From an uncultured archaeon (GTDB taxonomy: Archaea > Asgardarchaeota > Hermodarchaeia > Hermodarchaeales > Hermodarchaeaceae): a stretch of DNA of 64,000 nt. The notes below the pieces were generated by a model that was given only the letters and a program-made list of their open reading frames with translations, did not search any database and was not told the DNA's origin. The stretch covers positions 121,243-185,242 of the forward strand of contig CAYFXC010000001.1 in the NCBI GenBank assembly GCA_964347045.1. Reading direction: 5' to 3'. Positions within the stretch are counted from its first letter, which is position 1. Every line of letters starts with the position of its first letter. The position numbers and the translations under genes were made by a program. Positions 7,290 through 32,218 of the stretch are shown one piece after another.

Positions 7290-8246
7290 TTATACTTTCT
7301 CTAGGAGTATCACGCGGCTTACAGAATCCTCTTTTGAAATAATATAGTCAGATTCATCAGCTAGTTCTTCAGCGAAATCTCGGATTTCTTTCATATTTGG
7401 CATATTCTCACGAGAAAGCCGTTGCATGCTGCCACCAACGTGCATAAAGGCTTTGCATTCAATGAAATCGGAACCTGCTCCATCAAGGATTTTTGCATAT
7501 TTGGATACACTGTGCATGTTGTGACCCATTACAAGAGTCATTCGTATTACACTAGGACAGGAGAAAGTAGACAGAAGGCCTAATGAATCCTGTAGCCTTT
7601 CCCAGGCTATAGGTACTAAAGGGCGACATAATTCTTGATGTGTTTTTTTATCTGGAGCAACAAATGAGATGTATAACTGTGTGGGTTCCTCAATTTGTTC
7701 AAGAACTTGTGGATTGGTACCGTTACTTACAAGATAGCTTGTCCAATTACGATGTTTACATTCTTCAATTAAATCTGAAAGTCGTTCATAACGTGTAGGT
7801 TCTCCCACCAGACTAATTGCCACGTGTTGTGGGTTTCGTGCCTCTTCATACATTTTCGGAAGAACTTTGGGATGGCAAATGGGATTATATCCATCGAGAA
7901 TCTTTCGCTGTTCAATAATGGCATTGTCTAAAATTTCTGAAGGTTCATCAGATACTTCTCTCTGCAAATGATTAGGAAAGCCTTCGTCCCCAGGCATAGT
8001 TCGCCAACAAAATTGACATGATTGGCTACATTGTAGCGTAGGAGAAAGTTGCATGCACCTATGAGTAACTATCGTTTCATAGAAAGTTTGTTTGTAACAT
8101 GGACGCTGCTGGGTCAAAGCCTTGTGAAGGTGATAACATTTCTTCAAAACACTATTTCTACCAATGAAACGATAACGTTGTCGACGGTAAATTTTAACTA
8201 AATCAGTAGAAACCACAAGACCAACCGTGGATTCAGCCAGAGCCAA
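7290..8246 (-). CDS. taw1: tRNA 4-demethylwyosine synthase (Taw1/TYW1), radical SAM
   Basis: 'CSQSCQFC' CxxxCxxC cluster plus downstream TYW1-like region. Confidence 0.78.
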   Translation of the reverse strand: MALAESTVGLVVSTDLVKIYRRQRYRFIGRNSVLKKCYHLHKALTQQRPCYKQTFYETIVTHRCMQLSPTLQCSQSCQFCWRTMPGDEGFPNHLQREVSDEPSEILDNAIIEQRKILDGYNPICHPKVLPKMYEEARNPQHVAISLVGEPTRYERLSDLIEECKHRNWTSYLVSNGTNPQVLEQIEEPTQLYISFVAPDKKTHQELCRPLVPIAWERLQDSLGLLSTFSCPSVIRMTLVMGHNMHSVSKYAKILDGAGSDFIECKAFMHVGGSMQRLSRENMPNMKEIRDFAEELADESDYIISKEDSVSRVILLEKV

Positions 8247-8297
8247 TCATTTAAGTATTCTGTTTTCACAGCACCCACACACGACCAAATTGTTCGC

Positions 8298-8942
8298 ATG
8301 GGGTCTTCCACCATGAGCCTTAAAAAAATTGGCGATGCAATCTATGCAAATCTAGCAGTTCAAAACAAATCTCGTGATCTTCTTATTGATGAGATGCATA
8401 AAGTGCTAAAAGTAACAAGGGAAGCAATTTCTGCTATACACCAGGATGAAATGAATAAGGCCGGAAAATCAATTGAAAAAGCCCAATCACTTTTGAAGGC
8501 AGCGCAAACTCATGTTGAAAAACTCAGTCAACTCCCTGTTATTGGATTAGTACACGATGCTGAAGGCGAAGTCGCTGAGGCTTCTTTATTTTACTCATTT
8601 CGCCGTAAAGAGAAGTTACCAGATCCCGAAAAAATTGGTGTAGGCGTCATCGGCTATCTCCAAGGGCTTGGAGATTTTGTCGGAGAGCTCCGAAGATATT
8701 CAATCGATTCCTTAATAAACGATAATCCTGATGAAGCAAAAAGAGCATTTAATCAAATGGAACAGGTTTATGCTACTTTAATGACATTCGATTTTCCTCA
8801 CGGCTTAACACCAGGGATTAGACGAAAAACAGATTTAGCTCGTGGGTTAATTGAACGAACTCGTGCTGATCTCAGTACAGCTGTTGAAAACCGTCGGTTA
8901 CTTGCAGGAATATTCTCTTTACAAAAATCGCTTGGAAAATAA
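8298..8942 (+). CDS. Translin-family protein
   Basis: C-terminal 'GYLQGLGDFVGELRRYSI' translin box; all-helical; about 214 aa. Confidence 0.6.
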   Translation: MGSSTMSLKKIGDAIYANLAVQNKSRDLLIDEMHKVLKVTREAISAIHQDEMNKAGKSIEKAQSLLKAAQTHVEKLSQLPVIGLVHDAEGEVAEASLFYSFRRKEKLPDPEKIGVGVIGYLQGLGDFVGELRRYSIDSLINDNPDEAKRAFNQMEQVYATLMTFDFPHGLTPGIRRKTDLARGLIERTRADLSTAVENRRLLAGIFSLQKSLGK

Positions 8943-9615
8943 AGGAGGGCTATCATCCCTGCCAAACAAGTTCTCTACTATAAGAGCCCGGCAAGTTCAA
9001 CAAAGTCTAGTTAAATGCCTTATTGAAGAAGATGCATTCCCTAATCCACCTCTTACGGTATGCGGTTTAGACGTCTCTTATTTTGATCAGACAGCCATTG
9101 GAGTCGCTGTCATACTTAGCTTTCCAGATCTAAATCTAATAGAACAAAAAATTGTGTATACCAAATCAACAGTTCCATATGTTCCCACATTCCTATCTTT
9201 CCGGGAATATCCCCCACTTTCGTTGGCTTATAATGCACTTTCAACTAAACCTGATCTTTGTTTTGTTGATGCACATGGTCGAGCACACCCCCGAAAACTT
9301 GGTGCGGCTAGTCATTTTGGCATTTTAAGAAATGTGCCCACAATAGGAGTGGCGAAAAGCTTACTGTGTGGAACCATCCAACTCAATACTAAACCGTTTG
9401 AAACAATAATTCTCGATGGTGAAGTACTTGGTGCAAGGCTATTTACAAGATACGGGTGCAACCCAATTTATGTCAGTGTTGGGCATCGAATATCATTAGC
9501 AACTGCTGTTGAAATGACCCAACAATGCGTTAGTAAGTATCGCCTTCCTGAACCCACGCGTCTTGCACACCGCATGGCAACTGAGGCACGACTTAAATTA
9601 AAAAATATGCGATGA
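8851..9615 (+). CDS. nfi: Endonuclease V
   Basis: 'GLDVSY', 'VPYVPTFLSFREYPPL', 'DAHGRAHPRKLGAASHFG' and 'PTIGVAKS' are all Nfi signatures. The start is uncertain: the only in-frame ATG/TTG starts overlap the translin ORF (8851 or about 8929), and no start exists after the translin stop. Confidence 0.8.
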   Translation: MNELVLISVQLLKTVGYLQEYSLYKNRLENKGGLSSLPNKFSTIRARQVQQSLVKCLIEEDAFPNPPLTVCGLDVSYFDQTAIGVAVILSFPDLNLIEQKIVYTKSTVPYVPTFLSFREYPPLSLAYNALSTKPDLCFVDAHGRAHPRKLGAASHFGILRNVPTIGVAKSLLCGTIQLNTKPFETIILDGEVLGARLFTRYGCNPIYVSVGHRISLATAVEMTQQCVSKYRLPEPTRLAHRMATEARLKLKNMR

Positions 9616-10310
9616 TACACTTGAAAGAACAGCTTTGGTTTACTCTTTTGGCATTGGCTCAACTTGGCGCTGTTTCTACCGATATTCGAACATCAACTTC
9701 ACGGCTAGCTCAGCTTCTACAGATTAGTCAACAAACAGCTTCACGAAGACTTTATGTCCTGGAAAGAAGGGGTTTCATTCGCCGGGTTCTTGATAATCGC
9801 GGACAACTAATTCGCCTAGAACCCAAGGGGATATCGAAATTAGCCAAAGTTCAGTCCATCCTAGAAATAGCTATAGCCAAAAAACGATATCGAAGTTTTA
9901 GAGGACGAGTCTTCACAGGGCTAGGTGAAGGCGCATACTATATCCGTTTAGAAGGCTACCGAAAACAATTCAGAAAAATGTTAGGTTACAATCCGTACCC
10001 CGGAACACTAAATATTCAACTATTAGCCGAAACAGACGTGGACGAATTTCAGCTGCTTAAAGCAACTGTTGGTATCAAAATCTTTGGATTCGTAACTGGG
10101 GATAGAAGTTTTGGACCAGTTATATGTTATCCTGCAACAGTAAATGGTGAACAAAAAGCTACTGTCTTGTTGATTGAACGCACTCACCATCATCCAAATG
10201 TCGTTGAAATCATTGCTCCTATTTGTCTTCGTGAAAAACTCGAAGTTTCGGATGATGATGTTGTCACTGTGAAATTCGATCTTTCTGTTTTGCAAAGGCC
10301 TTCTCAATAA
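9612..10310 (+). CDS. ribK: HTH-fused CTP-dependent riboflavin kinase (RbkR-like)
   Basis: N-terminal winged-helix domain; C-terminal archaeal RibK core 'LGYNPYPGTLNIQL ... ERTHHHPNVVEIIAP'. Confidence 0.75.
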   Translation: MIHLKEQLWFTLLALAQLGAVSTDIRTSTSRLAQLLQISQQTASRRLYVLERRGFIRRVLDNRGQLIRLEPKGISKLAKVQSILEIAIAKKRYRSFRGRVFTGLGEGAYYIRLEGYRKQFRKMLGYNPYPGTLNIQLLAETDVDEFQLLKATVGIKIFGFVTGDRSFGPVICYPATVNGEQKATVLLIERTHHHPNVVEIIAPICLREKLEVSDDDVVTVKFDLSVLQRPSQ

Positions 10311-10734
10311 TCCGGGTTGTGCTGTTCAGCTGAAATTCATCATACAATCTTTCTAACCGAATTACCTGAGTCGAAAATCCTTTTCCTTTTAATCGCTTCT
10401 GAATTTCATCTAATGAGAACTTTTGGTTAGGACCCAACATGAGAACATCTGGATTCAATTCTTCAATGATGCTTACAAAATCACGACCAGGGTTACCCAA
10501 AACTGCTTTTGAAACACCTTTCAAAGCTTCAACCATAAAGAGACGCTGTTTTTCGGGAACAATAGCAGGATGCCCTTTCGTATGGATTACATTTTCATCA
10601 CGAGCAATAACTACAATAACCTCACCTAGCTTTGCCGCCTCCATAATCAGAAAAACATGACCGGGGTGAAGAATATCGAAGGTTCCAGTAATAACAATTC
10701 GCTTTTTCGTCATCCTGTTTGCCTTTCTATACAT
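10264..10734 (-). CDS. ribL: FAD synthetase (archaeal FMN adenylyltransferase RibL)
   Basis: 'ITGTFDILHPGHVFLIMEAAKLG...VIARDE' cytidylyltransferase fold, close to MJ1179 RibL over its length. Its 3' end overlaps the ribK 3' end by about 47 nt. Confidence 0.85.
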   Translation of the reverse strand: MYRKANRMTKKRIVITGTFDILHPGHVFLIMEAAKLGEVIVVIARDENVIHTKGHPAIVPEKQRLFMVEALKGVSKAVLGNPGRDFVSIIEELNPDVLMLGPNQKFSLDEIQKRLKGKGFSTQVIRLERLYDEFQLNSTTRIIEKAFAKQKDRISQ

Positions 10735-10810
10735 GCAACTATAAAATCTTAGGGCTTGTCTCTTATGCAGAAAGTTTTAAAATCAGTGGTAGAAAAAAAT
10801 GCTCAATCAC

Positions 10811-10930
10811 GGGCTCGTAGCTTAGCCAGGCAGAGCGTCGGGCTCTTAATCCAATTGTATTGGAGACACCCGATTGTCGGGGGTTCGAAAGTATGCGAAT
10901 ATGTATCCGAAAATCCCCCCGAGCCCGCCA
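10811..10930 (+). tRNA. tRNA-Lys(CUU) with two introns (anticodon loop and T-loop)
   Basis: Acceptor GGGCTCG/CGAGCCC, G73, encoded CCA. D-arm GCTT-AGCCAGGCA-GAGC. Anticodon stem TCGGG/CCCGA with loop CTCTTA|A, interrupted by a 19-nt insert 'ATCCAATTGTATTGGAGAC' at 37/38. T-stem GGGGG/CCCCC with T-loop TTCGAAT, interrupted by a 24-nt insert (splice point ambiguous because of the repeated CGAA). The overlapping 80-aa ORF in the track is spurious. Confidence 0.75.
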
Positions 10931-19999: not shown

Positions 20000-20377
20000 T
20001 TACTCTGTATTGGGTTCAGAGAGAAGCTGGATAAGGAGTTGCCCGCCAAATGAAAGACAGACTGTGTTTCTTCCATTTTTTGTTGAGCTTTTCTTTAGCA
20101 GACCGGCTTTTTTGAGAACATTCAAGTTAAATTTGGTTGTACTGAGCGGCAGCTGCCATTTGCGTGCTAAATAGTCTGCAAGAGCGGTCGGAGAGAGGTT
20201 CGGATGATAACGAAGCGCTTGCTGTGTCGCAAATAACAGGAATCGTTGCTTATCAGTTAGCCGTGTCTTGGCAAGCTGAGCGAAAGTCGAAGCTAGATGC
20301 TGTAAAAAATGCTCTTGAAGCTGCGTTAAACTCAAATCATCAAAGAAGCTGTCTTTCATGGAGGATTTCGCAGCCAA
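20000..20377 (-). CDS. Small HTH DNA-binding protein, family uncertain
   Basis: Predicted helix-turn-helix 'LSTTKFNLNVLKKAGLL'; 125 aa. Confidence 0.35.
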   Translation of the reverse strand: MAAKSSMKDSFFDDLSLTQLQEHFLQHLASTFAQLAKTRLTDKQRFLLFATQQALRYHPNLSPTALADYLARKWQLPLSTTKFNLNVLKKAGLLKKSSTKNGRNTVCLSFGGQLLIQLLSEPNTE

Positions 20378-20536
20378 CCCCGTCTTGACTAGTTGTCATG
20401 CATAACACCTCCAAACTCATAAGGATTCGAGTGAAATCCAAGAGGGATTTACTGCGTATAAAGTTTTGGTCAAGAAAAATTGTTGGATTTACTTGCGTTT
20501 GACTTACTGAACCTCATTTAGTTTGAAATTAAATGG

Positions 20537-22051
20537 TTAATTCCATTCTTGTGGAACTCTATACTCAAAGCGGGGAATTCGTTCCGAGTCCGATAGCATC
20601 TTCAACATTTCTCTTCCATTCACCAAGTCGTAGGGAGTGACAATTCCACCAATTTGTAAAACACTGCCAATTCTTCGATTTGCACCTGTTAAATCTTCCA
20701 AATCACGGAACAATGCAGATTTATTACCTGCCGTTGAACCTGATGGAACACCAAGAAGTGCAAGGGTTAGAAGAACGGTTGGCCAACCTGTTAGATGTTG
20801 CATCGCTGTAAAAGCCTGAGACTCTTCAACTTCAGAATCATCGTGGAGCGCAAGGATTTCAACTTTAGCGGGCTGGTCTATTGCTGCTGATTGAACCCAA
20901 ACTCTAAGTAATGCCATATCAGGAAATCCAGCCACTTCGGGGTCATTTATTCTAGCTTTCCACTTTTGGAGTAAATTTTCAAGGGTTTCTTCCTTTTTCA
21001 ATCGACTCCAAGTTTGATAATGTGGAATAAATCGTAAGGTTTTATATTCCAAGTTTTTCACTTTAGAGCGGTAAAGGTCATCAAAGCACATTCGCGAGGT
21101 TCCATCGGCGGTTGGTCTTGCTTGAAATCCCTTTAAGTAGAAATTTCCCTTGGATTCTTCAATGAACTTTTCCTGTACACGATTCTTGAGAATACTTTGA
21201 ATCTCAACTGATTTCACAAGAAATGGCATCACACCAAATGGAATTGGAGCGAGATCAGAATCCTCCCAGAATTCTTTTTGGGAAAATGTAGTCGGTGTTA
21301 TTAGAACTCCATCTCGAATTCCATATGCAACATTTTCATATTCGTATAAAAGACCTTCAACTGAAAATGTTGGACCATAATGGAGGTTTCCGCCCTTTGT
21401 AGTATGTTGGGGTAGCCCTCCTACTCGCATTTGAAGAGAATGTATCATTTCATTTGGGGTAGCTTTAACAGCTAGCTCATACAAACTTGCGGCAATGATA
21501 TTAGCTAATCCTGGTGCAAGACCACTTTCGTGAACAATTCGCGAACCACTTTCTTGTTTTATAATTAATGATTCCATAACACGCTGTTCTTTGACTGATG
21601 AAACTCCTTGTCCAAGATCGATATAATCAATACCTAACTCGATCGCCAAAGGGACGTAGATCTTATGAGCAAAATACGTAGCTGTATTTATTATGATACG
21701 AGGCTGCAGTTTGCTTATTGGTCCTCTCATGATTGAGATAATTTTTCTTACTCGCTCTGGTTGCACTTGAACCTCTTTCATGATTTTTGTCAATTTGGAA
21801 TAATTGACTGAAGATTCAATTGTGCGGAGCCTTTGAATTTTGGCATTGGTAAAACCATTTTCAAGCTCTTGTACACACCTTTGTTCTGCAACTTTATTAG
21901 GATCATAAACCCAAAGTTCAAATTGTTCATTTTGCCGTTTTTGCTCTAGGCGAAGCATTCGACTGATTCCGCGCCCCATTTGTCCACAGCCGATTATTAG
22001 AACACGTGGTTGTGCCATTTTAGACAACTTCATTTTCTGGTTTAATTTCAT
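20537..22051 (-). CDS. Saccharopine dehydrogenase-family NAD(P)-binding oxidoreductase
   Basis: N-terminal Rossmann 'RVLIIGCGQMGRGI' followed by a Sacchrp_dh-like region; 504 aa. Confidence 0.5.
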   Translation of the reverse strand: MKLNQKMKLSKMAQPRVLIIGCGQMGRGISRMLRLEQKRQNEQFELWVYDPNKVAEQRCVQELENGFTNAKIQRLRTIESSVNYSKLTKIMKEVQVQPERVRKIISIMRGPISKLQPRIIINTATYFAHKIYVPLAIELGIDYIDLGQGVSSVKEQRVMESLIIKQESGSRIVHESGLAPGLANIIAASLYELAVKATPNEMIHSLQMRVGGLPQHTTKGGNLHYGPTFSVEGLLYEYENVAYGIRDGVLITPTTFSQKEFWEDSDLAPIPFGVMPFLVKSVEIQSILKNRVQEKFIEESKGNFYLKGFQARPTADGTSRMCFDDLYRSKVKNLEYKTLRFIPHYQTWSRLKKEETLENLLQKWKARINDPEVAGFPDMALLRVWVQSAAIDQPAKVEILALHDDSEVEESQAFTAMQHLTGWPTVLLTLALLGVPSGSTAGNKSALFRDLEDLTGANRRIGSVLQIGGIVTPYDLVNGREMLKMLSDSERIPRFEYRVPQEWN

Positions 22052-22511
22052 TTCTATAAAAAATACAAATTAGTATTACTTTGGTCAAAAAAATTGCCCA
22101 TTTTGTTCATTTTGAAGATTAACAACAGATATTCTAACTCATACGAATACAATGTTTATTGTAAAATCTGGAAAAAGGTATTATGACAATTTAGCTATTA
22201 GATACAGAACTGATAGGGACCCGAGTTTTGCCTAGGTTGGTGATTACCGTTTCTAGTTTCTTGAAAGCAATCTTCCAAGCTTTCTCAAAATAGTTTCTGG
22301 CTTCATTCCATGCTTCAGAACCCCTATCCAAATGAATAATGTCGTAAGAATAGTAATAAACAAGCCCCAGAGAAGAAACAGCAGAATCGGTAAAAACCAA
22401 GTTGCAGCTAATTTTTCGTTGAGTTCAAGCAATAGAATCAATCGAAATCCGACTAGTAAGATATTATCTAATAAAAAAGGAATGAAAAAAGATTCCTAAA
22501 AAGAGTGAATT

Positions 22512-23075
22512 TTAGGATTCTTCTTTCTTATCTTTTAGCATCACCCAGCCTAAGTATACTAGTCCGCCAATGCAAACAGGTAATAAGGCCCACAGAAATG
22601 CTGCTATCCATGTGAATATCCAATCATTGAGTGGCCATGTTTGAAAGGTAAGGTTCCACCGACCAGTAAACCACACAATGACTAGCCATATCAATGAAAC
22701 GAAACCCGAAAAACCACCGCTGCCACCAGTTTCTGCACCGCGTCGCGGCCCTTCGTATTCTTTTCGTTCTTCTTCTGGAAGTTTTCTATACCATAGAAAA
22801 ATTGTTATCACGGCTATCGGAATTGCCCAACTTGCCACAAAGGCAAGTTCCCATATTATCACAGTTATACAAAATATGAATACAATACCAACGGTCCATA
22901 ATCCAAGTGTCACCGGCACAAAACCTAGTATTTGTGCATCTACTGCTACCTTGAGAAATACCAAAAATGCCACAATTATGGCTACCACGAGATAAACAGC
23001 CATCACTATCGTCATTTTCCAATGTCTTTGTAGAAACTTTTTCATTCGCGCTTCGCTTTGTTCATCAGTTTCCAT
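22512..23075 (-). CDS. Integral membrane protein (hypothetical)
   Basis: Four to five predicted TM helices; central 'GGSGGFSGF' loop. Confidence 0.5.
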   Translation of the reverse strand: METDEQSEARMKKFLQRHWKMTIVMAVYLVVAIIVAFLVFLKVAVDAQILGFVPVTLGLWTVGIVFIFCITVIIWELAFVASWAIPIAVITIFLWYRKLPEEERKEYEGPRRGAETGGSGGFSGFVSLIWLVIVWFTGRWNLTFQTWPLNDWIFTWIAAFLWALLPVCIGGLVYLGWVMLKDKKEES

Positions 23076-23253
23076 AACTTCAGGCTCCTAAAATTGATTA
23101 GGTCTGATTACATTCATTGTCTCTTTACTTAAAATTAATCATATTTATAAGAAAAACACTTCATCAGGATTTCTTTTTACTCAACTCCGCTTCAGTAGTA
23201 GCTGATAATCCTTTTATTCGAATTTCTTTGAAAACTCTATAGGTGAATTGCTC

Positions 23254-23427
23254 TTGAAAGATTTCGACTTTGAATATGTTTGTGTACAAGTAAACCATCA
23301 TAGGAACATTGCTAAGACAATATCCGAATATCAGAAAGAAGGATGGAGGCTTCATACCTATCAAGCAACAGGCGATCCAAACTGGGTCAACCATTACCTA
23401 CTTTTCCAACGAGAAATATCTTGGTAA
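23254..23427 (+). CDS. Small DUF4177-like protein (TTG start; missed by the ORF track)
   Basis: Translation '(M)KDFDFEYVCVQVNHHRNIAKTISEYQKEGWRLHTYQATGDPNWVNHYLLFQREISW' matches the E-Y ... EGW-L ... F-R pattern of DUF4177 small proteins. It overlaps the listed 77-aa ORF 23309..23542 in another frame. Confidence 0.4.
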   Translation: MKDFDFEYVCVQVNHHRNIAKTISEYQKEGWRLHTYQATGDPNWVNHYLLFQREISW

Positions 23428-23541
23428 GGTAAAAAAGGGTGAATTGCTTTCCTACACTTCACCTTCGGTATTGTCACAAAACGTTATTATAACGGATGGA
23501 AGCGTTATGGAATTTGATATCATCACTGGGGACGACGATTA

Positions 23542-24726
23542 ATGGTATATCTTGTTGGTGAAGCCCTCGTAGGTAAAGGAAACGAAATTGCTCATATAGA
23601 CCTCATCATAGGCGAAAAATCGGGACCAGTTGGAACGGCCTTTGCTCATGGAATGACCAATGTGTCTCATGGTCATTCGCCATTGTTAGCAGTAATTCGA
23701 CCGAATCTGCCACCTAAACCGCATACACTCATTATCCCCAAAGTTACTGTGAAAGATATGGGTGATGCAGAGAAAATCTTTGGTCCGGCACAAGCAGCAG
23801 TAGCGAAAGCCGTGGCTGACGCTTTAGAAGAGGGAATAATTCCAAAGGCAAAAGCGGATGAATGGGTAGTCATTTGTAGCGTGTTCATTCACCCCGACGC
23901 AAAAGATTACCGAAGGATTTATCATTATAATTATGCTGCGACCAAGCTGTCGATTCAGCGTGCCCTTTCCAATTATCCCCCGGTGGACAAAATCATGTAT
24001 GACAAAGATCGAGCAACCCACCCAATCATGGGTTTTCGAGTACCGCGATTATGGCGACCACCGTATTTACAAATTGCATTGGATATTCCAAGCCTTGATA
24101 AGACAAAGAAGATTATCACAGCCTTACCACGAAGCGATAACATCATTTTAGAGGCGGGGACCACCCTCATCAAACGCTACGGCACTGCAGTGCTCAGTGA
24201 CATCCGTGAAGTAGCGAAAGACAAATTCCTTGTTGCTGATCTCAAAACACTAGATGTAGGAAAGGTTGAAGTCGATTTAGCCTTTGATGAATCCGCCGAT
24301 GCAGTTGTCGTCGCAGGATTGGCTTCAGTGGATACAATTGATCAATTCATCTATGAAACCAACCGGCTTGGGATTTATTCCTTTGTTGATATGATGAACG
24401 TAGAAGACCCCATTGTAAAGCTCCAGAGTCTGAAAATGCCACCCAATGTCGTTATTATGCATCGGGGAATTGACACAGAGGGTCGTGCAGACCATAAATG
24501 GGCCGTCGTAAAGGCTATAAAAACGGCATTCAAAGGCAAACGATTACTAATATCCGTGGCTGGAGGTATACGTCCAGACAATATTGATGCCGCCCTTAAA
24601 GCTAAAGCCGATATCATCGTTGTTGGACGATATATTACGCAATCTCGAGACGTTGAAAGATCAACTCGGGAATTCCTCACACAGATGCAAGGAGATATCG
24701 ACTTGTTTAGGGTCCACACCGAGTAG
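23542..24726 (+). CDS. fae-hps: Bifunctional formaldehyde-activating enzyme / 3-hexulose-6-phosphate synthase (Fae-Hps)
   Basis: N-terminal '[24 protein letters not shown]' (Fae); C-terminal OMP-decarboxylase-like '[11 protein letters not shown] ... ISVAGGIR' (HPS). Confidence 0.85.
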
Positions 24727-24764
24727 ATCTTTTGAAATAAAGTGAAAAGAATTAGGCGAGTTCT

Positions 24765-26099
24765 CTATTTTTTCCAACATTTTTTTCTTATGTTATAGTA
24801 GATTTTCCATTTGGGATAGGAAAGACCATATTCATCAAAAATTGTTTCAGCGATTTCTCCGCATGATTTCCCCTTGTTCAAAAGGTTCAATATTATCGTA
24901 GAAACACCATCAGGTATTGGTTGTCTTATATTCGTAGCTCTTAACTTAATCATCTCACCAACCTTTTCTGCCTTAACCTGGCGTCCGGAGGCATGCAAGA
25001 AAAAAGGCAAAGTTATGGCCTTAAGGAGGCTTTCTGCATTAACAATAACTACTTCGATTTCGTTTCCGCGCGATATTATTCCGAATTTTTTCAATAGCTT
25101 CATAACAAGATGTTTATTTGGTCCGCAGGCATTGCCTAGAACTTGTGATTGGGTACTCGCATAACCATCACCATCATTAATACTCTGTAGAAACATTAAA
25201 CGGACTTCATAGGGAGCATCGATTAGCCAGTCAGCTCTAATAGGGTCGTAAGTAGTCAGTTTCTTTGGTCCCATGCTAAGGCAGCTTCGCATTATCCAAG
25301 TAATCAATGGAGAGACCCCAGAAACACACAAATATTCTAATTCAGATTCAGAATAGCTGAAAGAGATTCCAAGTTGAGAAAGATAGAAGCAAGTAGCTTC
25401 GATTACCTGTTTACTCCATTTATACGATTTCGAAAGGCGGAGAGTTATTCCTGTTGATGCATGGCTATTATTCGGTTTACTTGCGTCACTTACCATCATT
25501 CCTAAAACATAAGCAAAGGCTTGTTCTTTACTTGTGACGCCAAATTGTTCACAAAAATAGTGTCTTTCTTCTGTGATTATTGGTGTCAGCAGATCAAGAA
25601 CTTTACAAATTTGGTTCCAATTAGTAATTTTTACAGGAACCTGTATGAAATTAGTAGGTTCAAAACCGTGTCCAGCTTTCAATGTTCTTGGTAACCATTT
25701 ATGTCCAGGTTCAACTTCTTCAGTGGGTATTTGCCGGGCAAGGTTGACTAAATCAGGCCTTATCTTGTTTAGTAACCATTTTCTCACAAACCCACGATCT
25801 TTCCCGATTTCTTTAGCAATATCTGCAATATTTCCTCCCTCTTTGAATAGTTCAATTGCATGAAAGTATTTTTCAACTTGAGTGAGACGATGTTGATAAC
25901 CGAATAGCCCAGTTAACTCCTGGAAATGATAATAGGATTTTAGACGACCCATAAGGTCATTAATAGAGCAAATACCATTATTTTCCCGATTTATCTCAGT
26001 AATTTTAGCAAGAGCTTCGGTCTTAGAAAAGGCATTTTCAAGGAGTTGGTATAAGCGAGGTCGACGAGCCTTCTTTATATAAGCCGTTATAAGAACCAA
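24765..26099 (-). CDS. Double-LAGLIDADG-like (homing-endonuclease-like) protein with N-terminal HTH
   Basis: Two LAGLIDADG-like blocks about 105 aa apart: 'FAYVLGMMVSDASK' and 'LMFLQSINDGDGYAS'. HTH 'NIADIAKEIGKDRGFVRKWL'. The annotated 'M' is a TTG, and the reading frame stays open a further ~94 codons upstream with no start codon. Confidence 0.5.
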   Translation of the reverse strand: MVLITAYIKKARRPRLYQLLENAFSKTEALAKITEINRENNGICSINDLMGRLKSYYHFQELTGLFGYQHRLTQVEKYFHAIELFKEGGNIADIAKEIGKDRGFVRKWLLNKIRPDLVNLARQIPTEEVEPGHKWLPRTLKAGHGFEPTNFIQVPVKITNWNQICKVLDLLTPIITEERHYFCEQFGVTSKEQAFAYVLGMMVSDASKPNNSHASTGITLRLSKSYKWSKQVIEATCFYLSQLGISFSYSESELEYLCVSGVSPLITWIMRSCLSMGPKKLTTYDPIRADWLIDAPYEVRLMFLQSINDGDGYASTQSQVLGNACGPNKHLVMKLLKKFGIISRGNEIEVVIVNAESLLKAITLPFFLHASGRQVKAEKVGEMIKLRATNIRQPIPDGVSTIILNLLNKGKSCGEIAETIFDEYGLSYPKWKIYYNIRKKCWKK

Positions 26100-26381
26100 T
26101 TGAGCCTCAAGAGACCTAGTTCTACAGGTTTTCCGGGCAAGATTAGTTAAGTACCCAAATCTCAGATGTTTTTTATTTCTTAGCTTTTTTACGAGGTCGA
26201 AATGCAGCTCAGCATTTTCAAGTAACCTATGAAACCGTCGATTACGTTTGATACCGGGGTATTCACTGTCAATAATAAGGTGAAGGTGTTCTTTTTCCTT
26301 AATACCAAATTCACCAATACGAGGATGCCAGATCTTAACATTAGCTGAAATTCTGTTTGTCCCTTCTTTGAAGTACTATCA
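26100..26381 (-). pseudogene. Start-less in-frame remnant with an HuH (IS200/IS605 TnpA-like) motif
   Basis: About 94 stop-free codons with no ATG/GTG/TTG, contiguous with the LAGLIDADG-like ORF. Contains 'EKEHLHLIIDSEYP' (cf. TnpA 'DHIHMLLEIPP') and 'HLRFGYLTNLARK' (cf. 'FWCRGYYVDTVGK'). Confidence 0.3.
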
Positions 26382-26426
26382 GTTATTCATTTTTAAACTA
26401 AAGAACTCCACGACCCAGGATTATTA

Positions 26427-26939
26427 TTAGAATTTGTATTCAACTTCTATTTCGTGGAGAGAAATCTCTGGTGGGAGCCAGCTTCTAAGATGCTGTTCGA
26501 GCATTTCCGCGAGGAGTACTCCCGGTTCAGCCAATGATTGGTGCCGAATTTCCATCTTGATGTGGAGTGTGCCATACAGAAGGTGGAGGTGGAAACTTAA
26601 GTCCGCAAACAGTATACTGCTACTAGGGTCGCCCCATATTGGGTCAGCTTCCGGGAATTCGCGGTTCGGTCGGTTACACCCAAACGTAGTGATTGCACTG
26701 CGACCCATGGCGTTTTCAGAGGCAGAAACTCTATACGGTTCATTTAGATCGTAGATGATTGGCACAAGCTTCTGTTCGCTAGCCCACAAGCGCATGATGT
26801 CGGCGACTTCTTGATAGATTCGTTCGAAGTGTGGGGGGAGCTTATCGAACTGCTTGACTTTCACCATGCCATTTCCACTCATCACATAGATGGTGGTTCT
26901 CTTTGAAAAATCTGACCATAACGAATTTAATAGACTCAA
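26427..26939 (-). CDS. Hypothetical protein (GC-richer than its surroundings), ends in a TAATAATAA triple stop
   Basis: 170-aa ORF, no motif recognised with confidence (one 'FHLHLLY' HuH-like string). Composition by eye is about 50% GC, against about 40% nearby. Confidence 0.35.
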   Translation of the reverse strand: MSLLNSLWSDFSKRTTIYVMSGNGMVKVKQFDKLPPHFERIYQEVADIMRLWASEQKLVPIIYDLNEPYRVSASENAMGRSAITTFGCNRPNREFPEADPIWGDPSSSILFADLSFHLHLLYGTLHIKMEIRHQSLAEPGVLLAEMLEQHLRSWLPPEISLHEIEVEYKF

Positions 26940-27230
26940 ATCACGATATGTTGGTGCAGCTATCGTTGTAGTCGTAGTGCTGTCGTGGTTCTGCTTGTCA
27001 AACGTCGAGAATAGGATCTTACTAACGAGAACCGCCTTGACTCGGAGAATGAGTAACTGAATTAGTGCTTATTGAAGAGTATCTATGACATGCACCGAAG
27101 GTAACGCTACCTATTGGAGTTTGCTCAGTTTCTGCGGATACTTCTGTTGAATAGAAAAATTCAAGAACCTACACAAACCTAACAAACCTAAGCAATTATT
27201 TATGAAAATTGCTGGGAGTGTATTCCTAAG

Positions 27231-27530
27231 ATGCCTTCGGGTATCAAACGACTCGTTCTCGATGTTCTCAAACCACACATGCCGAACCTTGTTGAAATAG
27301 CAACATTGGTCGGAAAAATAGATGGCGTCGTTGGTGTTAACGTCGCCCTTGTCGAAGTCGACTCTGCTACGGAGTCAATAAAAGTAACTGTTGAAGGCGA
27401 TAACCTCGAATTTGAAGAGGTTAGATGTGCCCTCGAAGCCTGTGGCGCTTCCGTTCACTCAATTGATCAAGTAGTTGCCGGACGTACAGTTGTGGAAGAG
27501 GTAAAAACCCATATGGAAAACCGCGGTTAG
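27231..27530 (+). CDS. Conserved archaeal small protein (DUF211/COG1888-like)
   Basis: 'IKRLVLDVLKPHMPNLVEIATLV...GVNVALVEVDSATESIKVTVEGDNLEFEEV...GASVHSIDQVVAGR' pattern; 99 aa. Confidence 0.5.
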   Translation: MPSGIKRLVLDVLKPHMPNLVEIATLVGKIDGVVGVNVALVEVDSATESIKVTVEGDNLEFEEVRCALEACGASVHSIDQVVAGRTVVEEVKTHMENRG

Positions 27531-28237
27531 ATTCCTAACACCCACTTAGAATTCTCAATCAATGCTTCTACATGAGGTGCTAAAAGCTCGTAAAGCGAAT
27601 TATAAAACACTCTTGGAAGAATCTGTAGAACATTAAAAATCCGATTCAATAGACCACTCATAACCGGTTCTAAAAGTTCAGGACGGCTACTAATTTGCGA
27701 GGTTAAAACTGCGTCAATAGCAGCTTCTTCGGCTAATCCATCAATTAGGCGATAGATTGGTCCTGATCTTTCAAGAAAATATGGAAGACCCCGTTCGTCA
27801 TAAAGGACAATAATATTTAGTTTTTCGACAACACGTTTTGCATACCAGTCTATGCTCGAATCCTTAGCTGAAAACGATTCATGAAAAAGAGGTTCGGCTG
27901 GTCGTCGTTTTGTGATCTTTGATGATTCGGCTGAAAAGTAACTCCGAGGAACAAGATTGGGGTATGTGTTGGGATGTCGGAATGCTATGTAAGTGACTGC
28001 AGCAAAGAGTGCTTCCGGTTCGCGACCAATTTCTTGAGTTCCAAGATGGCTCGCTAGAATGCGAAGCGATGGAAGAATTAAATCCTGACGAACCTTCTTT
28101 GAAGTAAACAAACGGTATGCTTGTTTTAGGTATACTGATGGTGTCTTCAGATCAGTTCGTACGGTTCCTTCTACTCTGATCTTTGACGCCAAATCCATTT
28201 GTCTCCGCAGGAAATTACTACCCCATGTATGAGACAT
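27527..28237 (-). CDS. Hypothetical protein with a TFIIB/cyclin-like repeat
   Basis: 'DLILPSLRILASHLGTQEIGREPEALFAAVTYIAFRH' resembles a TFIIB-core/cyclin-box repeat (...ASKLGL...RSP.SIAAAAIYIA.R). No Zn-ribbon is present. The likely start is the internal 'MDLASKI'. Confidence 0.3.
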   Translation of the reverse strand: MSHTWGSNFLRRQMDLASKIRVEGTVRTDLKTPSVYLKQAYRLFTSKKVRQDLILPSLRILASHLGTQEIGREPEALFAAVTYIAFRHPNTYPNLVPRSYFSAESSKITKRRPAEPLFHESFSAKDSSIDWYAKRVVEKLNIIVLYDERGLPYFLERSGPIYRLIDGLAEEAAIDAVLTSQISSRPELLEPVMSGLLNRIFNVLQILPRVFYNSLYELLAPHVEALIENSKWVLGI

Positions 28238-28293
28238 AGGTCCTAAATATATTTTAGGCGAGGCTCATGTTCAAGCTTGATGTTCACCTTTCT

Positions 28294-28671
28294 CTACGTA
28301 ATGTGGCCTGCTTCTTCAAGGTATTGCTTTTCTTCTGGTGTAAGGTGTGTTTGTACAAATTCTATACCTTTTTCCGTCATTGAAACTTGTGCCATCGTAT
28401 TAGTCTTTGAAAATATGGTTACAAATCCTCTTTCTTTTAATCTTTGAAGCACAGCAAAGACAATTTGGTTCAATTCCTTATCAGTGACATTTGGTTTTCC
28501 GTTAGGGCGTTGAAATTCCGGAATGTGTTTTAGAACATGACGTAGAGATGCCAGCGTACGTCGCCTTGTTTCATGGGGGTTGGAATAGAGCCAGAGAATG
28601 AGTACATAATCTATTACTTCGCCTGAATGCTGGCGATGCAATTGACGGGCAAGATAGTAAACGGCGGGCAA
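28294..28671 (-). CDS. Small winged-helix protein (hypothetical)
   Basis: 'IVFAVLQRLKERGFVTIF' wing-helix-like; 125 aa. Confidence 0.35.
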   Translation of the reverse strand: MPAVYYLARQLHRQHSGEVIDYVLILWLYSNPHETRRRTLASLRHVLKHIPEFQRPNGKPNVTDKELNQIVFAVLQRLKERGFVTIFSKTNTMAQVSMTEKGIEFVQTHLTPEEKQYLEEAGHIT

Positions 28672-28725
28672 TATCTTCGCTTTATGTTAGTTGAATAATT
28701 GTTTAAAAGTTACCAAACGTCCTGT

Positions 28726-29466
28726 TTAATCCCCTGTCCATTGGTAGGTTCCTTTTGAAGTCTTGATGATATAGCCTTGGCTTCTTAGCAGATTCAATGC
28801 TTCTTCTATTCCCGCACTGGGTCCCACTATGTCTTCAAGTCGTTTGATCAGTTCTTTGTGGCTAAGGGAAATTTGTGCATCACGTAGAATAGTTCCAATT
28901 ATGCGTGCTAGTTTTGTAGGGCTGGCTTTTCTAAGTTGTTTATCGATTGATGTATTTTCATCCATTACTAACCTGACTTGCCAAGGTTTAGGTAAAATGA
29001 GATGACCAGTTCGAATGAGGGTTTCAATTTGCTGTGTAGCCCAATCCCAAGGGATTCCAGCTTTAAGGCACTCTTGTTCTAAAACCTGTAAATCAAGAGG
29101 GCTTGTTTGGGCATGTTCATGTAGAATCCGCTCTAATTCTTGGTGTCGGGTCGAAGCTGTTTTTATTCTTTGCTTCGAATCCTGCAGGTGTTCTAAATTT
29201 ATTTTTTTATCTGGAATTAGATTGTGGATTTTATCTCGTGATTTCTCCATTGCTTCTATGAATTCCTTATGATGTTTTCCTGTTTGATAGAGTTTTACTC
29301 GGGTTCTCGCGGTATTTGCATCCTCTACAAACACTGCACTTAATGGGTTAATTTTGAAAATTCGTTGGCAATATACACATAATCGCGTCTTTTGGCGAGT
29401 GGGAGCATATGTGTAACGTCCACATCTTGGGCATCGAATTATGTAAAATCCTTCCCGTGACATCAA
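28726..29466 (-). CDS. Zn-ribbon + tandem winged-helix protein (hypothetical)
   Basis: N-terminal 'CPRCGRYTYAPTRQKTRLCVYCQRIF' C4 ribbon. Two C-terminal winged-helix-like units ('LDLQVLEQECLKAGIPWDWATQQIETLIRTGHLIL' and 'ISLSHKELIKRLEDIVGPSAGIEEALNLLRSQGYIIKTSKGTYQW'). Confidence 0.4.
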   Translation of the reverse strand: MMSREGFYIIRCPRCGRYTYAPTRQKTRLCVYCQRIFKINPLSAVFVEDANTARTRVKLYQTGKHHKEFIEAMEKSRDKIHNLIPDKKINLEHLQDSKQRIKTASTRHQELERILHEHAQTSPLDLQVLEQECLKAGIPWDWATQQIETLIRTGHLILPKPWQVRLVMDENTSIDKQLRKASPTKLARIIGTILRDAQISLSHKELIKRLEDIVGPSAGIEEALNLLRSQGYIIKTSKGTYQWTGD

Positions 29467-29506
29467 GACAACCAGCGCCGTAAGCCTAATTAGCCTTTCG
29501 TGTTAA

Positions 29507-29845
29507 ATGTCCTCAATTGGGAACACTCATATGAGTTTTGGATTAGATCAGTATTTTAAAAAGAAAAAGCCTACCAAGAAAAATGAGACTGAACCTAAAG
29601 AAGAAGAGGTCATAGAAATATTAGAAACTGGTTCGTCAGAAACTCGAAATTGGCCTTTAATTTTAGAAGAGACTGTTAAATCCATGGTACTCTATCCCCA
29701 TCTACTTGATTATACACGAACCAATATATTTCCCAAACGTCCCCAAATAACTGCTGAAGAGCTTGCAATTCAACTTCGAGTTCCTTTGGGGGTTGCAATT
29801 GTTCTTCTTGACAAGCTTCATAGTGAGATTCAGGAAACGAAATAA
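29507..29845 (+). CDS. Small hypothetical protein with C-terminal winged-helix-like segment
   Basis: 'ITAEELAIQLRVPLGVAIVLLDKL'; Lys/Glu-rich N-terminus; 112 aa. Confidence 0.3.
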   Translation: MSSIGNTHMSFGLDQYFKKKKPTKKNETEPKEEEVIEILETGSSETRNWPLILEETVKSMVLYPHLLDYTRTNIFPKRPQITAEELAIQLRVPLGVAIVLLDKLHSEIQETK

Positions 29846-29852
29846 CGCAGTC

Positions 29853-30668
29853 TCATGTTAGTGGTTCAGCCGATTGATAGAGATAGAGAAAATATATTTT
29901 GGCTAATTCTCCTAATTCAGTGTGGCTTGTCCAGATAGCTAGCGATTCAGCTGGTTGTGCTGTTAGCATGATAATTGCTTGCTTTTCATCAATAATAGCG
30001 CCGCCACCGTAGATTTCTTTTCGTTTCCGTCCCTCGCCAACTGCAAAGATTAGTCGTTTAACTTTGTCTGTTAATGTCTGTTCAGATACAAGGATTTGGA
30101 TTTTAACTCCGCGGTCACGAAGGTGTAACAGTGTCGGGCTAATGAACTCGATGTCTTCTTCGTTAATAATCCCCCAAGAAAGAAGAACGCTTCGTTCTGC
30201 TTGTCCAAGTGCAACATTCAACTTTGCTCGGACATTATTTGATCCATGGAGAATGTGGACTTCTGGAGCAGAGATTTTCGTTTTTTCATCAAACAAAGGT
30301 TGTAGATTCTCAATGACCCTTTGTTCCCATTCCGCTAGACGATCTTGAGCTGAGAGAACCGCTGCCTTGGATGTTTCGCGAGGGCTTTTTGGAACATATC
30401 GTTTAGGGCGTCCCTGCTCAATGGTTATCCATCCTCCTTTATCAAGAGCTGCTAATACATCGTAAACACGGCTAAACGGAATCCGAGAATGTGAACTCAC
30501 TTCACTTGCAGTTAGAGCTCCATTTCTAACCAAAGAGATATACACCCGAGCTTCGTAACTACTCAACCCTAAGTTTCGGAGTGCTCGCATTGTTCCTTCA
30601 TCTATGCGCTCACCCATTTCAATCACACTCCGACAGCACATAACCTGCGAAAAAACCTTTTTGGTCAC
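29853..30668 (-). CDS. trmB: TrmB-family transcriptional regulator
   Basis: 'LRNLGLSSYEARVYISLVRNGALTASEVSSHSRIPFSRVYDVLAALDKGGW' TrmB N-terminal wHTH; C-terminal sugar-binding-like domain. Confidence 0.75.
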   Translation of the reverse strand: MTKKVFSQVMCCRSVIEMGERIDEGTMRALRNLGLSSYEARVYISLVRNGALTASEVSSHSRIPFSRVYDVLAALDKGGWITIEQGRPKRYVPKSPRETSKAAVLSAQDRLAEWEQRVIENLQPLFDEKTKISAPEVHILHGSNNVRAKLNVALGQAERSVLLSWGIINEEDIEFISPTLLHLRDRGVKIQILVSEQTLTDKVKRLIFAVGEGRKRKEIYGGGAIIDEKQAIIMLTAQPAESLAIWTSHTELGELAKIYFLYLYQSAEPLT

Positions 30669-30671
30669 CGA

Positions 30672-31619
30672 GTGAAATGTACTATGGGTGACACAATGGG
30701 ATTTATACGGCAGCCTGTTGCGATCGGCTTTTATCCACCGGAGAAAGTGGCTCTTGAAGAATCAATTAAAACCGCTTTTGCTGACCCACATGGAGCGGGA
30801 CAGATTCCTTCTATTAATCCGAAGCGCATAAAGAATTTAATTGCGGGTGTAGCTCCTCATGCGGGCTTCATCTACTCAGGACCCATCGCTTCGCATTTAT
30901 ACAAAGCCAGTGCGGAGGATGGATTTCCTGAGACATTCCTACTAATTGGTGCAAAACATAGGCTGTTGCAGTTCCCAGGTGCGGCTTTAATGGTTGAGGG
31001 GGCTTGGGAAACGCCTCTCGGAAAATGCAATATTGACTCCCCTTTTGCCAAACTTTTATTAAAGCAAAGTCAAGATTCTGGGACAAATTGCATAATCGAA
31101 AGTACTGAAGCCCACATGGGCGAGCATTCAATTGAAGTTCAATTGCCTTTTCTCCAGTTTTTAGGGAAAAATCACGATTTTCGAATTGTTCCCTTAGTAA
31201 TTTCTTCTTCAAAATATTCCGTTTGCGAGAAAGTGGGAAATACAATTGCTGATGCGGTTCAAAAAAGTAAACGAGATGTGTTTATTATTGCTAGTACGGA
31301 CTTCACTCATTATGGTAAATACTTTTACGATTATGCTCCTGTTGGAAGTGGTCCTGTCGAAAAAATAATCAAATGGATTCATGAAACAGATGGTGACCTA
31401 ATAAGCAAAATTGAGCAATTAAACGGTAAAGCTCTCTTGGACACCGTGGTGAAAGAAAATCGAACTATGTGTGGGGCAAGTGCCGTAGCCACAACAATTG
31501 CAGCAGCAACACATCTTGGTGCAACAAATGGGACATGCCTAAAGTACGCAACAAGTTATGATATTCGCGGGAGTTCAGAAGCAATAGTTGGCTATGCTTC
31601 AATTACCTTAAATCGTTAA
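30672..31619 (+). CDS. MEMO1-family protein (AmmeMemoRadiSam system protein B)
   Basis: 'RQPVAIGFYP' and 'APHAGFIYSGPIASHLY'. Confidence 0.8.
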   Translation: MKCTMGDTMGFIRQPVAIGFYPPEKVALEESIKTAFADPHGAGQIPSINPKRIKNLIAGVAPHAGFIYSGPIASHLYKASAEDGFPETFLLIGAKHRLLQFPGAALMVEGAWETPLGKCNIDSPFAKLLLKQSQDSGTNCIIESTEAHMGEHSIEVQLPFLQFLGKNHDFRIVPLVISSSKYSVCEKVGNTIADAVQKSKRDVFIIASTDFTHYGKYFYDYAPVGSGPVEKIIKWIHETDGDLISKIEQLNGKALLDTVVKENRTMCGASAVATTIAAATHLGATNGTCLKYATSYDIRGSSEAIVGYASITLNR

Positions 31620-32218
31620 GTAGTAATTGTCTTCTTTGGCGCATTTTTACCCATTTCTAGAGCTGAAATGTTCATTTCGTGATACCGATTAGGTAGAATA
31701 TCCCTAATTGTAGTAATTACCGTTTCTTCTTTGATAGGAAGTAACTTCAAACCAATAGCCGCACCAATAAGCACTATATTCATTGTCAGAATTCCACCTG
31801 CTTCTTGGGCAAATTTGGCTGCATCAAAGGTTATGACCTTGGCGAACTTCGCTAAATTCTGTAAAATTGTTTCATCGCTAGGATATTCTGCACGACCAAG
31901 AAGTACTGCTGTTGGAGTAATTCGATACTGTCCAACAATAATGGTTCCTGAAGGCATTACTCGATTTACGTTACGAAGGGCTTCAATGGGTTCGATGCTT
32001 AAGAGTAAATCCGCTTTACCCGTAGGAATAATTGGGCCATGAACGTTTTCTCCAATTCTGATGCTGCATTTCACAGCCCCGAGGCGTTGAGACATACCGT
32101 GAATTTCCCCCAATCTGACATTCAGCCCTTCATTAAGTGCTGCGGATGCTAAAATTCGTGCTGCAGTAATAACGCCTGTTCCGCCCACTCCTGTAAACAT
32201 AATATTAAACTCTTTCAT
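31616..32218 (-). CDS. iorB: Indolepyruvate ferredoxin oxidoreductase subunit beta
   Basis: 'IMFTGVGGTGVITAARIL' POR-gamma/IorB fold; 200 aa; overlaps iorA by 14 nt. Confidence 0.8.
   Translation of the reverse strand: MKEFNIMFTGVGGTGVITAARILASAALNEGLNVRLGEIHGMSQRLGAVKCSIRIGENVHGPIIPTGKADLLLSIEPIEALRNVNRVMPSGTIIVGQYRITPTAVLLGRAEYPSDETILQNLAKFAKVITFDAAKFAQEAGGILTMNIVLIGAAIGLKLLPIKEETVITTIRDILPNRYHEMNISALEMGKNAPKKTITT

Follow-up and report, generated by a model that had tools for sequence, protein, structure and literature searches.

The window considered here is a 64,000-nucleotide (nt) stretch of archaeal DNA, of which positions 24765-27230 were analysed; the names attached to homologues and related loci are those of Hermodarchaeota/Promethearchaeota (Asgard archaea). 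The segment is probably a free-standing gene of the homing-endonuclease type, one of an Asgard family, that is in an early stage of decay and alongside which a foreign gene has been inserted. What is observed is a stand-alone gene of LAGLIDADG type with intact catalytic residues, a presence/absence polymorphism in the spacer that houses it, recurrent decay, loss of the start codon and a nested foreign insertion. Mobility would be achieved by homing: the enzyme would cut the empty spacer of a genome without the gene, recombinational repair from the occupied allele would copy the gene in, and, with the site occupied, selection would relax and the gene would decay. In what follows, identifiers of the type L001 denote related contigs and those of the type P0001 denote proteins.

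The original prediction for this segment, made from the sequence alone, had envisaged a decayed or domesticated mobile element, partly IS200-like and partly homing-endonuclease-like, within a single GC-rich island. The idea of a mobile, decayed element was right in kind, in view of the empty sites, the recurrent decay and the lost start: an acquired homing-endonuclease-type LAGLIDADG gene that has lost its start is indeed present. The IS200 component and the single island were wrong. Almost all known LAGLIDADG homing endonucleases come from introns and inteins. The gene appears to represent a large, unannotated stand-alone LAGLIDADG family in Asgard archaea, the closest prokaryotic relatives of eukaryotes, and this family brings with it a new N-terminal module and variable arrays of helix-turn-helix (HTH) motifs. 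If active, its members would both mark gene flow and recombination hot spots in Asgard genomes and supply a mechanism for them, besides being a source of new long-site nucleases.

Fold and motifs of the LAGLIDADG protein

The minus-strand open reading frame (ORF) of 444 amino acids (aa) with a TTG start that had originally been pointed out is present, and forms part of a frame of 536 codons that is free of stops and frameshifts (Table 1). The two LAGLIDADG blocks, predicted to lie about 105 aa apart, are real; the aspartates D297 and D403 are separated by 106 residues. The predicted HTH was likewise recovered, as a match to HTH_23 at residues 172-201 (E 0.0027) that coincides with modelled helices 183-190 and 194-201; HTH_23 is matched by 12 of 17 family members.

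AlphaFold2 (AF2), run on the family alignment, yields a model with a predicted local distance difference test score (pLDDT) of 90.8 and a predicted template-modelling (TM) score of 0.81. Foldseek comparison with the PDB returns LAGLIDADG proteins only, all with probability 1.00, namely PI-SceI, the TliVMA intein endonuclease, E-DreI, I-DmoI, I-SceI, I-Tsp061I and WhiA; the TM-score to the target is 0.6-0.69 (E-DreI, I-DmoI). Helices 283-295 and 389-403 of the model are each followed by a beta-beta-alpha-beta-beta-alpha arrangement, which is the pseudo-dimeric fold that a single-chain, two-motif LAGLIDADG homing endonuclease would be predicted to have. Each motif carries at its C-terminal end an acidic, putatively catalytic residue, and these are almost invariant among family representatives (D297 is Asp in 149 of 151, D403 in 150 of 152). 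As modelled, the protein belongs to the single-chain, two-motif LAGLIDADG nucleases and retains both catalytic aspartates. The predicted nuclease core is flanked by an N-terminal helical/HTH module of about 280 residues and by a C-terminal HTH with weak similarity to the PAI HTH of Sleeping Beauty. Modelled separately, residues 1-280 are mostly helical (pLDDT 89.6), with the HTH again at 172-201; apart from HTH pieces of 32-34 residues, this module has no fold match in the PDB (best E 1.6), and no significant match was obtained when the family profile was searched against PDB sequences.

The closest known systems are the monomeric two-motif enzymes (I-DmoI, I-SceI and I-Tsp061I, and the endonuclease domains of PI-SceI and TliVMA). 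These have the same pseudo-dimeric double alpha-beta-beta-alpha-beta-beta-alpha core, with two LAGLIDADG helices (about 106 residues apart here) and a catalytic aspartate ending each motif; motif 1 reads SDA in the window protein, compared with GDA in I-SceI. A further likeness is that the gene is polymorphic as an insertion and decays, in keeping with the homing cycle. Sequence similarity to the solved enzymes is undetectable, the likeness being one of predicted fold and motifs, and the window protein is about three times larger, with its additional N-terminal module and C-terminal HTH. Unlike the enzymes of introns and inteins, the window gene is free-standing, in a spacer between genes of a cellular archaeal chromosome. 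Residence in an intron or intein was rejected: the site lies between Fae-Hps and DUF211, the ORF is not in frame within any host protein, window positions 20000-32000 contain no Rfam match at E<=0.1, and there is no tRNA, rRNA or intron RNA nearby.

WhiA is a bacterial regulator that is conserved in its host clade and uses a degenerate LAGLIDADG scaffold without the catalytic acidic residues. The window protein resembles it in architecture, with a C-terminal HTH after the LAGLIDADG double domain (Foldseek match to 8dy9_I, E 7e-5), but gives no match to WhiA in Pfam. The family also differs from WhiA in keeping both aspartates, and the window gene is found in some close relatives and is missing from others; the combination of lost catalytic residues and stable conservation within a clade is not what is found here. 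The free-standing seg and mob genes of T-even phages, responsible for 'intronless homing', encode GIY-YIG or HNH enzymes and reside in phage genomes. They are similar in that a stand-alone, variably present endonuclease gene lies between conserved genes and combines nuclease and HTH modules, whereas the present gene is of LAGLIDADG type, lies in an Asgard chromosome and has no viral copies in IMG/VR.

Occupied and empty sites in the Fae-Hps/DUF211 spacer

Insertion polymorphism was assessed in a metagenome scan with Fae-Hps as the query, and related genomes are seen to differ in whether a defined site carries the insertion. In nine related contigs the site is empty: a Fae-Hps gene that is 89-95% identical is followed, after a spacer of 85-149 nt, by DUF211. 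This bears out the suggestion that the segment is acquired and non-syntenic. In the empty contig L031, 58 nt (L031 4783-4840) take the place of the 2,413 bp between window positions 24726 and 27138, and the alignment of the flanks has 75% identity at the Fae-Hps end and 87% on the DUF211 side. Because spacers diverge quickly, the edges of the window-type element can be placed no finer than about 20-30 nt. Across the region, L002, an independent assembly from Logan, does not differ from the window.

The paralogue found in the window occupies the spacer on the minus strand there and in L001. In L030 and L034, the same spacer holds a different paralogue (P0007-type), which is 41% identical to the window protein and lies on the plus strand, in the opposite orientation relative to the flanks. 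This second paralogue carries an internal deletion and a frameshift in L028 (Candidatus Hermodarchaeum yapensis), and fragments of it occur in several genomes; L085, in which only the 3' end of the element remains, is taken as a loss allele. The edges of the P0007-type insert are sharp. When empty L035 is compared with occupied L030, two aligned blocks meet at one base, which defines an insert of 1,695 bp; the empty spacer (L035 2890-2935) reads GTACTTATGCTGA followed by AACAATAGATAG, with the junction around position 2913. The L030 insert begins with GTTCTTTAACTTAA, so that a TATA-like motif forms the very 5' end of the inserted DNA there. A third lineage (L005-L008 and L019) has yet another paralogue upstream of Fae-Hps, together with an empty Fae-Hps/DUF211 spacer.

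Terminal inverted repeats or hairpins, which had been proposed as something to look for at the boundaries, were searched for, and none is convincing. The only inverted repeats are short, with 74-92% complementarity, at chance level and away from the element boundaries; terminal direct repeats are also limited to chance-level matches, there is no target duplication at the L035/L030 junction, and the element ends show no convincing subterminal hairpins.

A separate observation concerns L036, whose Fae-Hps gene belongs to the L028/L035 host clade (91% nt identity), and whose spacer upstream of DUF211 is of the window/L031 type (L036 1266-1411 compared with L035 2842-2961). This pattern suggests a recombination breakpoint inside the spacer.

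A lost start codon and the readings of the family

In the minus-strand frame, the first ATG, GTG or TTG is the TTG at 26099-26097, and the frame continues upstream of it without any start. It had been noted that such a stretch is unlikely to be open by chance, and this holds: the frame is open to 26375, over 92 codons rather than the 94 first estimated, for which P is about 0.002 at local composition. The stretch is the conserved N-terminal domain of the family. Over its full length it can be aligned with the N-terminus of homologues from the LAGLIDADG family, with the consensus IW.P.I...LH.II..EYPGIKRNP...DAE.HL and the invariant residues W16, P18, I20, I25, L31, Y39, A55, H58 and L61. In all ten other full-length copies examined, the IW.P motif is preceded at a distance of a few codons by an ATG, GTG or TTG.

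How the start was lost can be seen by comparison with L001, a 2.5-kb contig from GCA_016840185.1 with 84% DNA identity to the window over positions 24051-26411. It carries an intact orthologue (P0002, 78% identical at the protein level) that starts ATG AAA AGT ... GTG ACA AAC. The ATG aligns to ACT or CTG in the window (26383-26380, depending on the alignment), and the GTG at codon 8 has lost its T, the deletion falling between 26362 and 26361. As a result, the first 8 codons are frame-shifted; upstream of 26375, the main frame reads ATG AAT AAC TGA TAG. The ratio of non-synonymous to synonymous substitution rates (dN/dS) between window and L001 is 0.27 for the whole gene, 0.38 for the N-terminal 84 codons and 0.21 for the rest, with 0.056 for Fae-Hps as a comparison. 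The gene was thus formerly under purifying selection, and the loss of its start is so recent that no further lesion has accumulated. The window copy would make either nothing or a 444-aa form, initiated at the internal TTG, that lacks the N-terminal domain, and the 444-aa 'hypothetical protein' of the public record is a 5'-damaged copy of a 536-aa gene. A Shine-Dalgarno-like GAGG is found 5 nt upstream of TTG 26099 (26100-26112, minus strand), a context that the orthologue does not have; it may account for the choice of this TTG by gene callers. Recoding or read-through of the TGA TAG stops was rejected, as TAG and TAA end neighbouring genes and the alignment with L001 reveals a frameshift, not a continuous frame.

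Two of the alternative explanations concern this 5' region. The original prediction had read it as the remnant of an IS200/IS605-type HuH transposase, fused to the homing-endonuclease-like gene to give a decayed insertion sequence. That is hardly credible now. It draws on the strings EKEHLHLIIDSEYP and FGYLTNLARK and on weak similarity of an HTH to those of transposases. Y1_Tnp finds no match at E<=1 in either Pfam or NCBIfam; in the 'HLH' string, H30 is His in only 12 of 81 family representatives and H32 in 22 of 81, while the position of Y75, the Tyr of 'FGY', is Glu or Asp in 64 of 94. The stretch is modelled as helical, with no HuH protein (RRM-like beta-sheet) among the PDB fold matches of residues 1-280, and it is accounted for by the conserved N-terminal domain. 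The similarity to TnpA of IS200/IS605 comes down to an H-x-H string and a tyrosine, both chance resemblances; hairpins and inverted repeats at chance level, the missing target duplication and the lack of identical or near-identical copies complete the case against it. A gene that is still intact and functional is improbable rather than incredible. It would use a non-canonical start (e.g. the ATT at codon 9) or the internal TTG, or the 5' lesions would be assembly errors. The uninterrupted 536 codons, the GAGG upstream of the TTG, an N-terminal dN/dS that at 0.38 is still below 1, and family short forms (409-440 aa) whose first residues fall near profile positions 110-128 all speak for it. They are set against the canonical start that precedes the N-terminal domain in every other full-length copy examined, the loss of two candidate starts together with a frameshift, the agreement of two assemblies on the sequence, the position of the TTG inside a predicted helix (89-100), and an N-terminal dN/dS above that of the remainder of the protein.

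The other explanations bear on the family as a whole. Homologues retrieved in a database search with the full 536-codon frame are 525-560 aa long and span 97-99% of it; identity is 78% for P0002 and about 40% for the others. An exhaustive profile search gives 432 clusters at 50% identity, of which 206 have E<=1e-30. More than a third of the listed family proteins (57 of 164) exceed 600 aa, their extra N-terminal parts being HTH arrays. In a scan of GTDB genomes, copies were found only in metagenome-assembled genomes (MAGs) of Hermodarchaeota/Promethearchaeota, at 2-4 per genome, with one weak match in Thorarchaeota. Named members are annotated 'hypothetical protein' and are all from Asgard archaea, one of them from Thorarchaeota; the family matches nothing in PHROG or PADLOC, and literature searches on LAGLIDADG proteins in Asgard lineages turned up no description of it. 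Identity between paralogues of one genome is 37-51%, compared with 70-78% between orthologues that share a locus, and each paralogue is tied to its own locus. As near-identical copies are missing, the family is not transposon-like; the locus-bound pattern fits site-specific elements rather than transposons.

Two further sets of members lie outside the window. P0025, P0035, P0056, P0066, P0073 and P0075 have 1,000-1,543 aa, with the module of about 525 aa at the C-terminus and, ahead of it, an extension of hundreds of residues in which HTH motifs recur. In the Hermodarchaeota MAG YT2_032 (L022), two members lie tail to tail, at 7932-9596 (plus strand) and 9611-10852 (minus strand); the second is a 413-aa form without the N-terminal domain.

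The main rival to the free-standing homing gene is a domesticated host family, i.e. old paralogous DNA-binding factors, or site-specific nucleases that serve the host, in either case with a LAGLIDADG scaffold, as in WhiA or yeast HO, and with vertical inheritance and loss in some lineages rather than selfish spread. It is possible, if rather unlikely. Consistent with it are the dN/dS of 0.27, the host-like GC content at third codon positions (GC3), deep and star-like paralogues (37-45% identity) at conserved loci with orthologues that are 70-78% identical, the Foldseek match to WhiA chain 8dy9_I, the extensive HTH arrays of the long forms and the absence of the family from IMG/VR. Difficult to reconcile with domestication are the almost universal retention of both catalytic aspartates and the dispensability of the gene, the site being empty in nine close relatives. 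The same spacer, moreover, holds two paralogues of only 41% identity in opposite orientations, the boundaries of the insert are clean, and decay has occurred repeatedly (L028, fragments in several genomes, the window copy).

The favoured reading, a homing-endonuclease-type gene in early decay, is itself weakened by several points. The window protein scores 21.3 bits against Pfam LAGLIDADG_3, just below the cut-off of 22.5 (E 3.3e-4); this profile matches 14 of 17 family members at E<=0.01, with 28-36 bits for long members. Recent mobility of the window copy is unsupported, because near-identical copies are lacking (identity between paralogues of one genome does not exceed 51%), the viral contigs of IMG/VR contain no family members, and the GC3, at 0.31, is host-like. 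The dN/dS of 0.27 against the orthologue implies purifying selection over most of the history of the gene, and ancient paralogues with differential loss could yield much of the same pattern. The assemblies in which the 5' damage is seen may derive from a single read set. In addition, the family includes short forms of 410-440 aa elsewhere, so the TTG-started product might be functional. A more far-reaching and rather speculative proposal, which we regard as unlikely, is that the undescribed, Asgard-wide family (at least 432 clusters, with forms up to about 1,500 aa) consists of site-specific selfish gene drives at spacers next to housekeeping genes, whose breaks create recombination hot spots that capture foreign cargo. 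Such cargo may be exemplified by three cases described below: the GC-rich 151-aa gene, an AbiE-like module and the genes that vary on the far side of Fae-Hps.

The GC-rich insertion and neighbouring features

The coordinates of all features are collected in Table 1.

Table 1. Features of the inserted segment and its flanks (positions in the window)
Feature	Position	Strand	Basis
Fae-Hps, bifunctional, host flank	23542..24726	+	NF009833, E 1e-177
Whole inserted segment (LAGLIDADG gene and nested small-gene insertion)	24726..27138		comparison with empty-site relatives
ORF of 536 codons plus stop, Asgard LAGLIDADG + HTH family of about 530 aa	24765..26375	-	homologues, AF2, Foldseek
444-aa version from TTG 26099-26097	24765..26099	-	public record P0001, 'hypothetical protein'
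C-terminal three-helix HTH, residues 489-535	24771..24911	-	AF2 helices 489-500, 505-516, 522-535
Predicted double LAGLIDADG nuclease core, residues 283-455	25011..25529	-	AF2, Foldseek, motifs
LAGLIDADG motif 2, MFLQSINDGDGYAS, residues 394-407, D403 (..INDGDG)	25155-25196	-	
LAGLIDADG motif 1, FAYVLGMMVSDASK, residues 287-300, D297 (..MMVSDAS)	25476-25517	-	
Internal HTH, residues 180-200	25776..25838	-	HTH_23 and AF2 helices
Start-less 92 codons, conserved family N-terminal domain	26100..26375	-	homologue alignment
Damaged 5' end	26358..26390	-	alignments with L001
Conserved upstream motif GAGTTCTTTAGTTTAA, TATA-box-like	26393..26408	-	same motif upstream of the L001 and window copies
Nested insertion of about 730 bp, edges uncertain by about 30 nt	26412..27141		absent from L001
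Conserved small gene, 151 aa from ATG (MSGNGMVKVKQ...)	26427..26882	-	homologues
DUF211 gene, host flank	27231..27530	+	PF02680, E 7.5e-33

The inserted segment is composite. In place of window positions 26412-27141, a stretch with a GC content of 0.46, L001 has 23 nt, and the stretch is absent also from all other relatives of the locus. It contains the 170-aa ORF (26427-26939) that had been described, correctly, as lying directly upstream of the LAGLIDADG ORF in the same frame and ending in TAATAATAA. Homologues of this ORF are 52-58% identical, with a strongly conserved C-terminus, and begin MSGSG or MSGCG; the gene therefore has 151 aa, and the 170-aa form with its TTG start is an over-extension. 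The one homologue that could be placed, P0023, has unrelated neighbours, namely a HEAT-repeat protein on one side and FKBP on the other.

The suspected GC-rich island holds for this ORF and fails for its neighbour. The 170-aa ORF has a GC content of 0.47, within the top 0.8% of equal-sized windows (mean for the window 0.41, standard deviation (SD) 0.024), and its GC3 of 0.52 is the maximum of 60 window ORFs (mean 0.33, SD 0.045), with 0.536 for the 151-aa form; the LAGLIDADG ORF, with a GC content of 0.378 and a GC3 of 0.31, is host-like. A single GC-rich island was thus rejected in favour of two nested insertions of differing composition. The GC3 of 0.54 points to a recent foreign origin of the small gene, which was inserted a few bases upstream of the TATA-like motif of the LAGLIDADG gene. 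The reading frame common to the two genes is a coincidence. Divergent from the 151-aa gene, and also within the GC-rich insertion, there is a 56-aa ORF with a hydrophobic run (GAAIVVVVVLSWFCL) at window 26890-27060 (plus strand), which may be due to chance.

Two other origins were considered for the segment and rejected. For a defence system, PADLOC returned no meaningful hit, its best matches being at E 0.02 for the small gene and at E 0.009 for a neighbouring 125-aa gene (window 28294-28671, minus strand), the latter a weak and probably not significant match to LmuC. For a viral origin, there was no relative in IMG/VR and no PHROG hit.

The other side of Fae-Hps is also variable (window 20378-23541, L028 1988-6625, L031 3126-3598 and L005 7728-9656). 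In the window, this flank is taken up by genes for a saccharopine-dehydrogenase-like protein (20537-22051) and a membrane protein (22512-23075), and in L031 and L033 by only a spacer of about 475 nt. L028 and L034 have a 4.7-kb module there, judged by eye from ORF translations to be AbiEi/AbiEii-like, and L005 carries a third LAGLIDADG paralogue.

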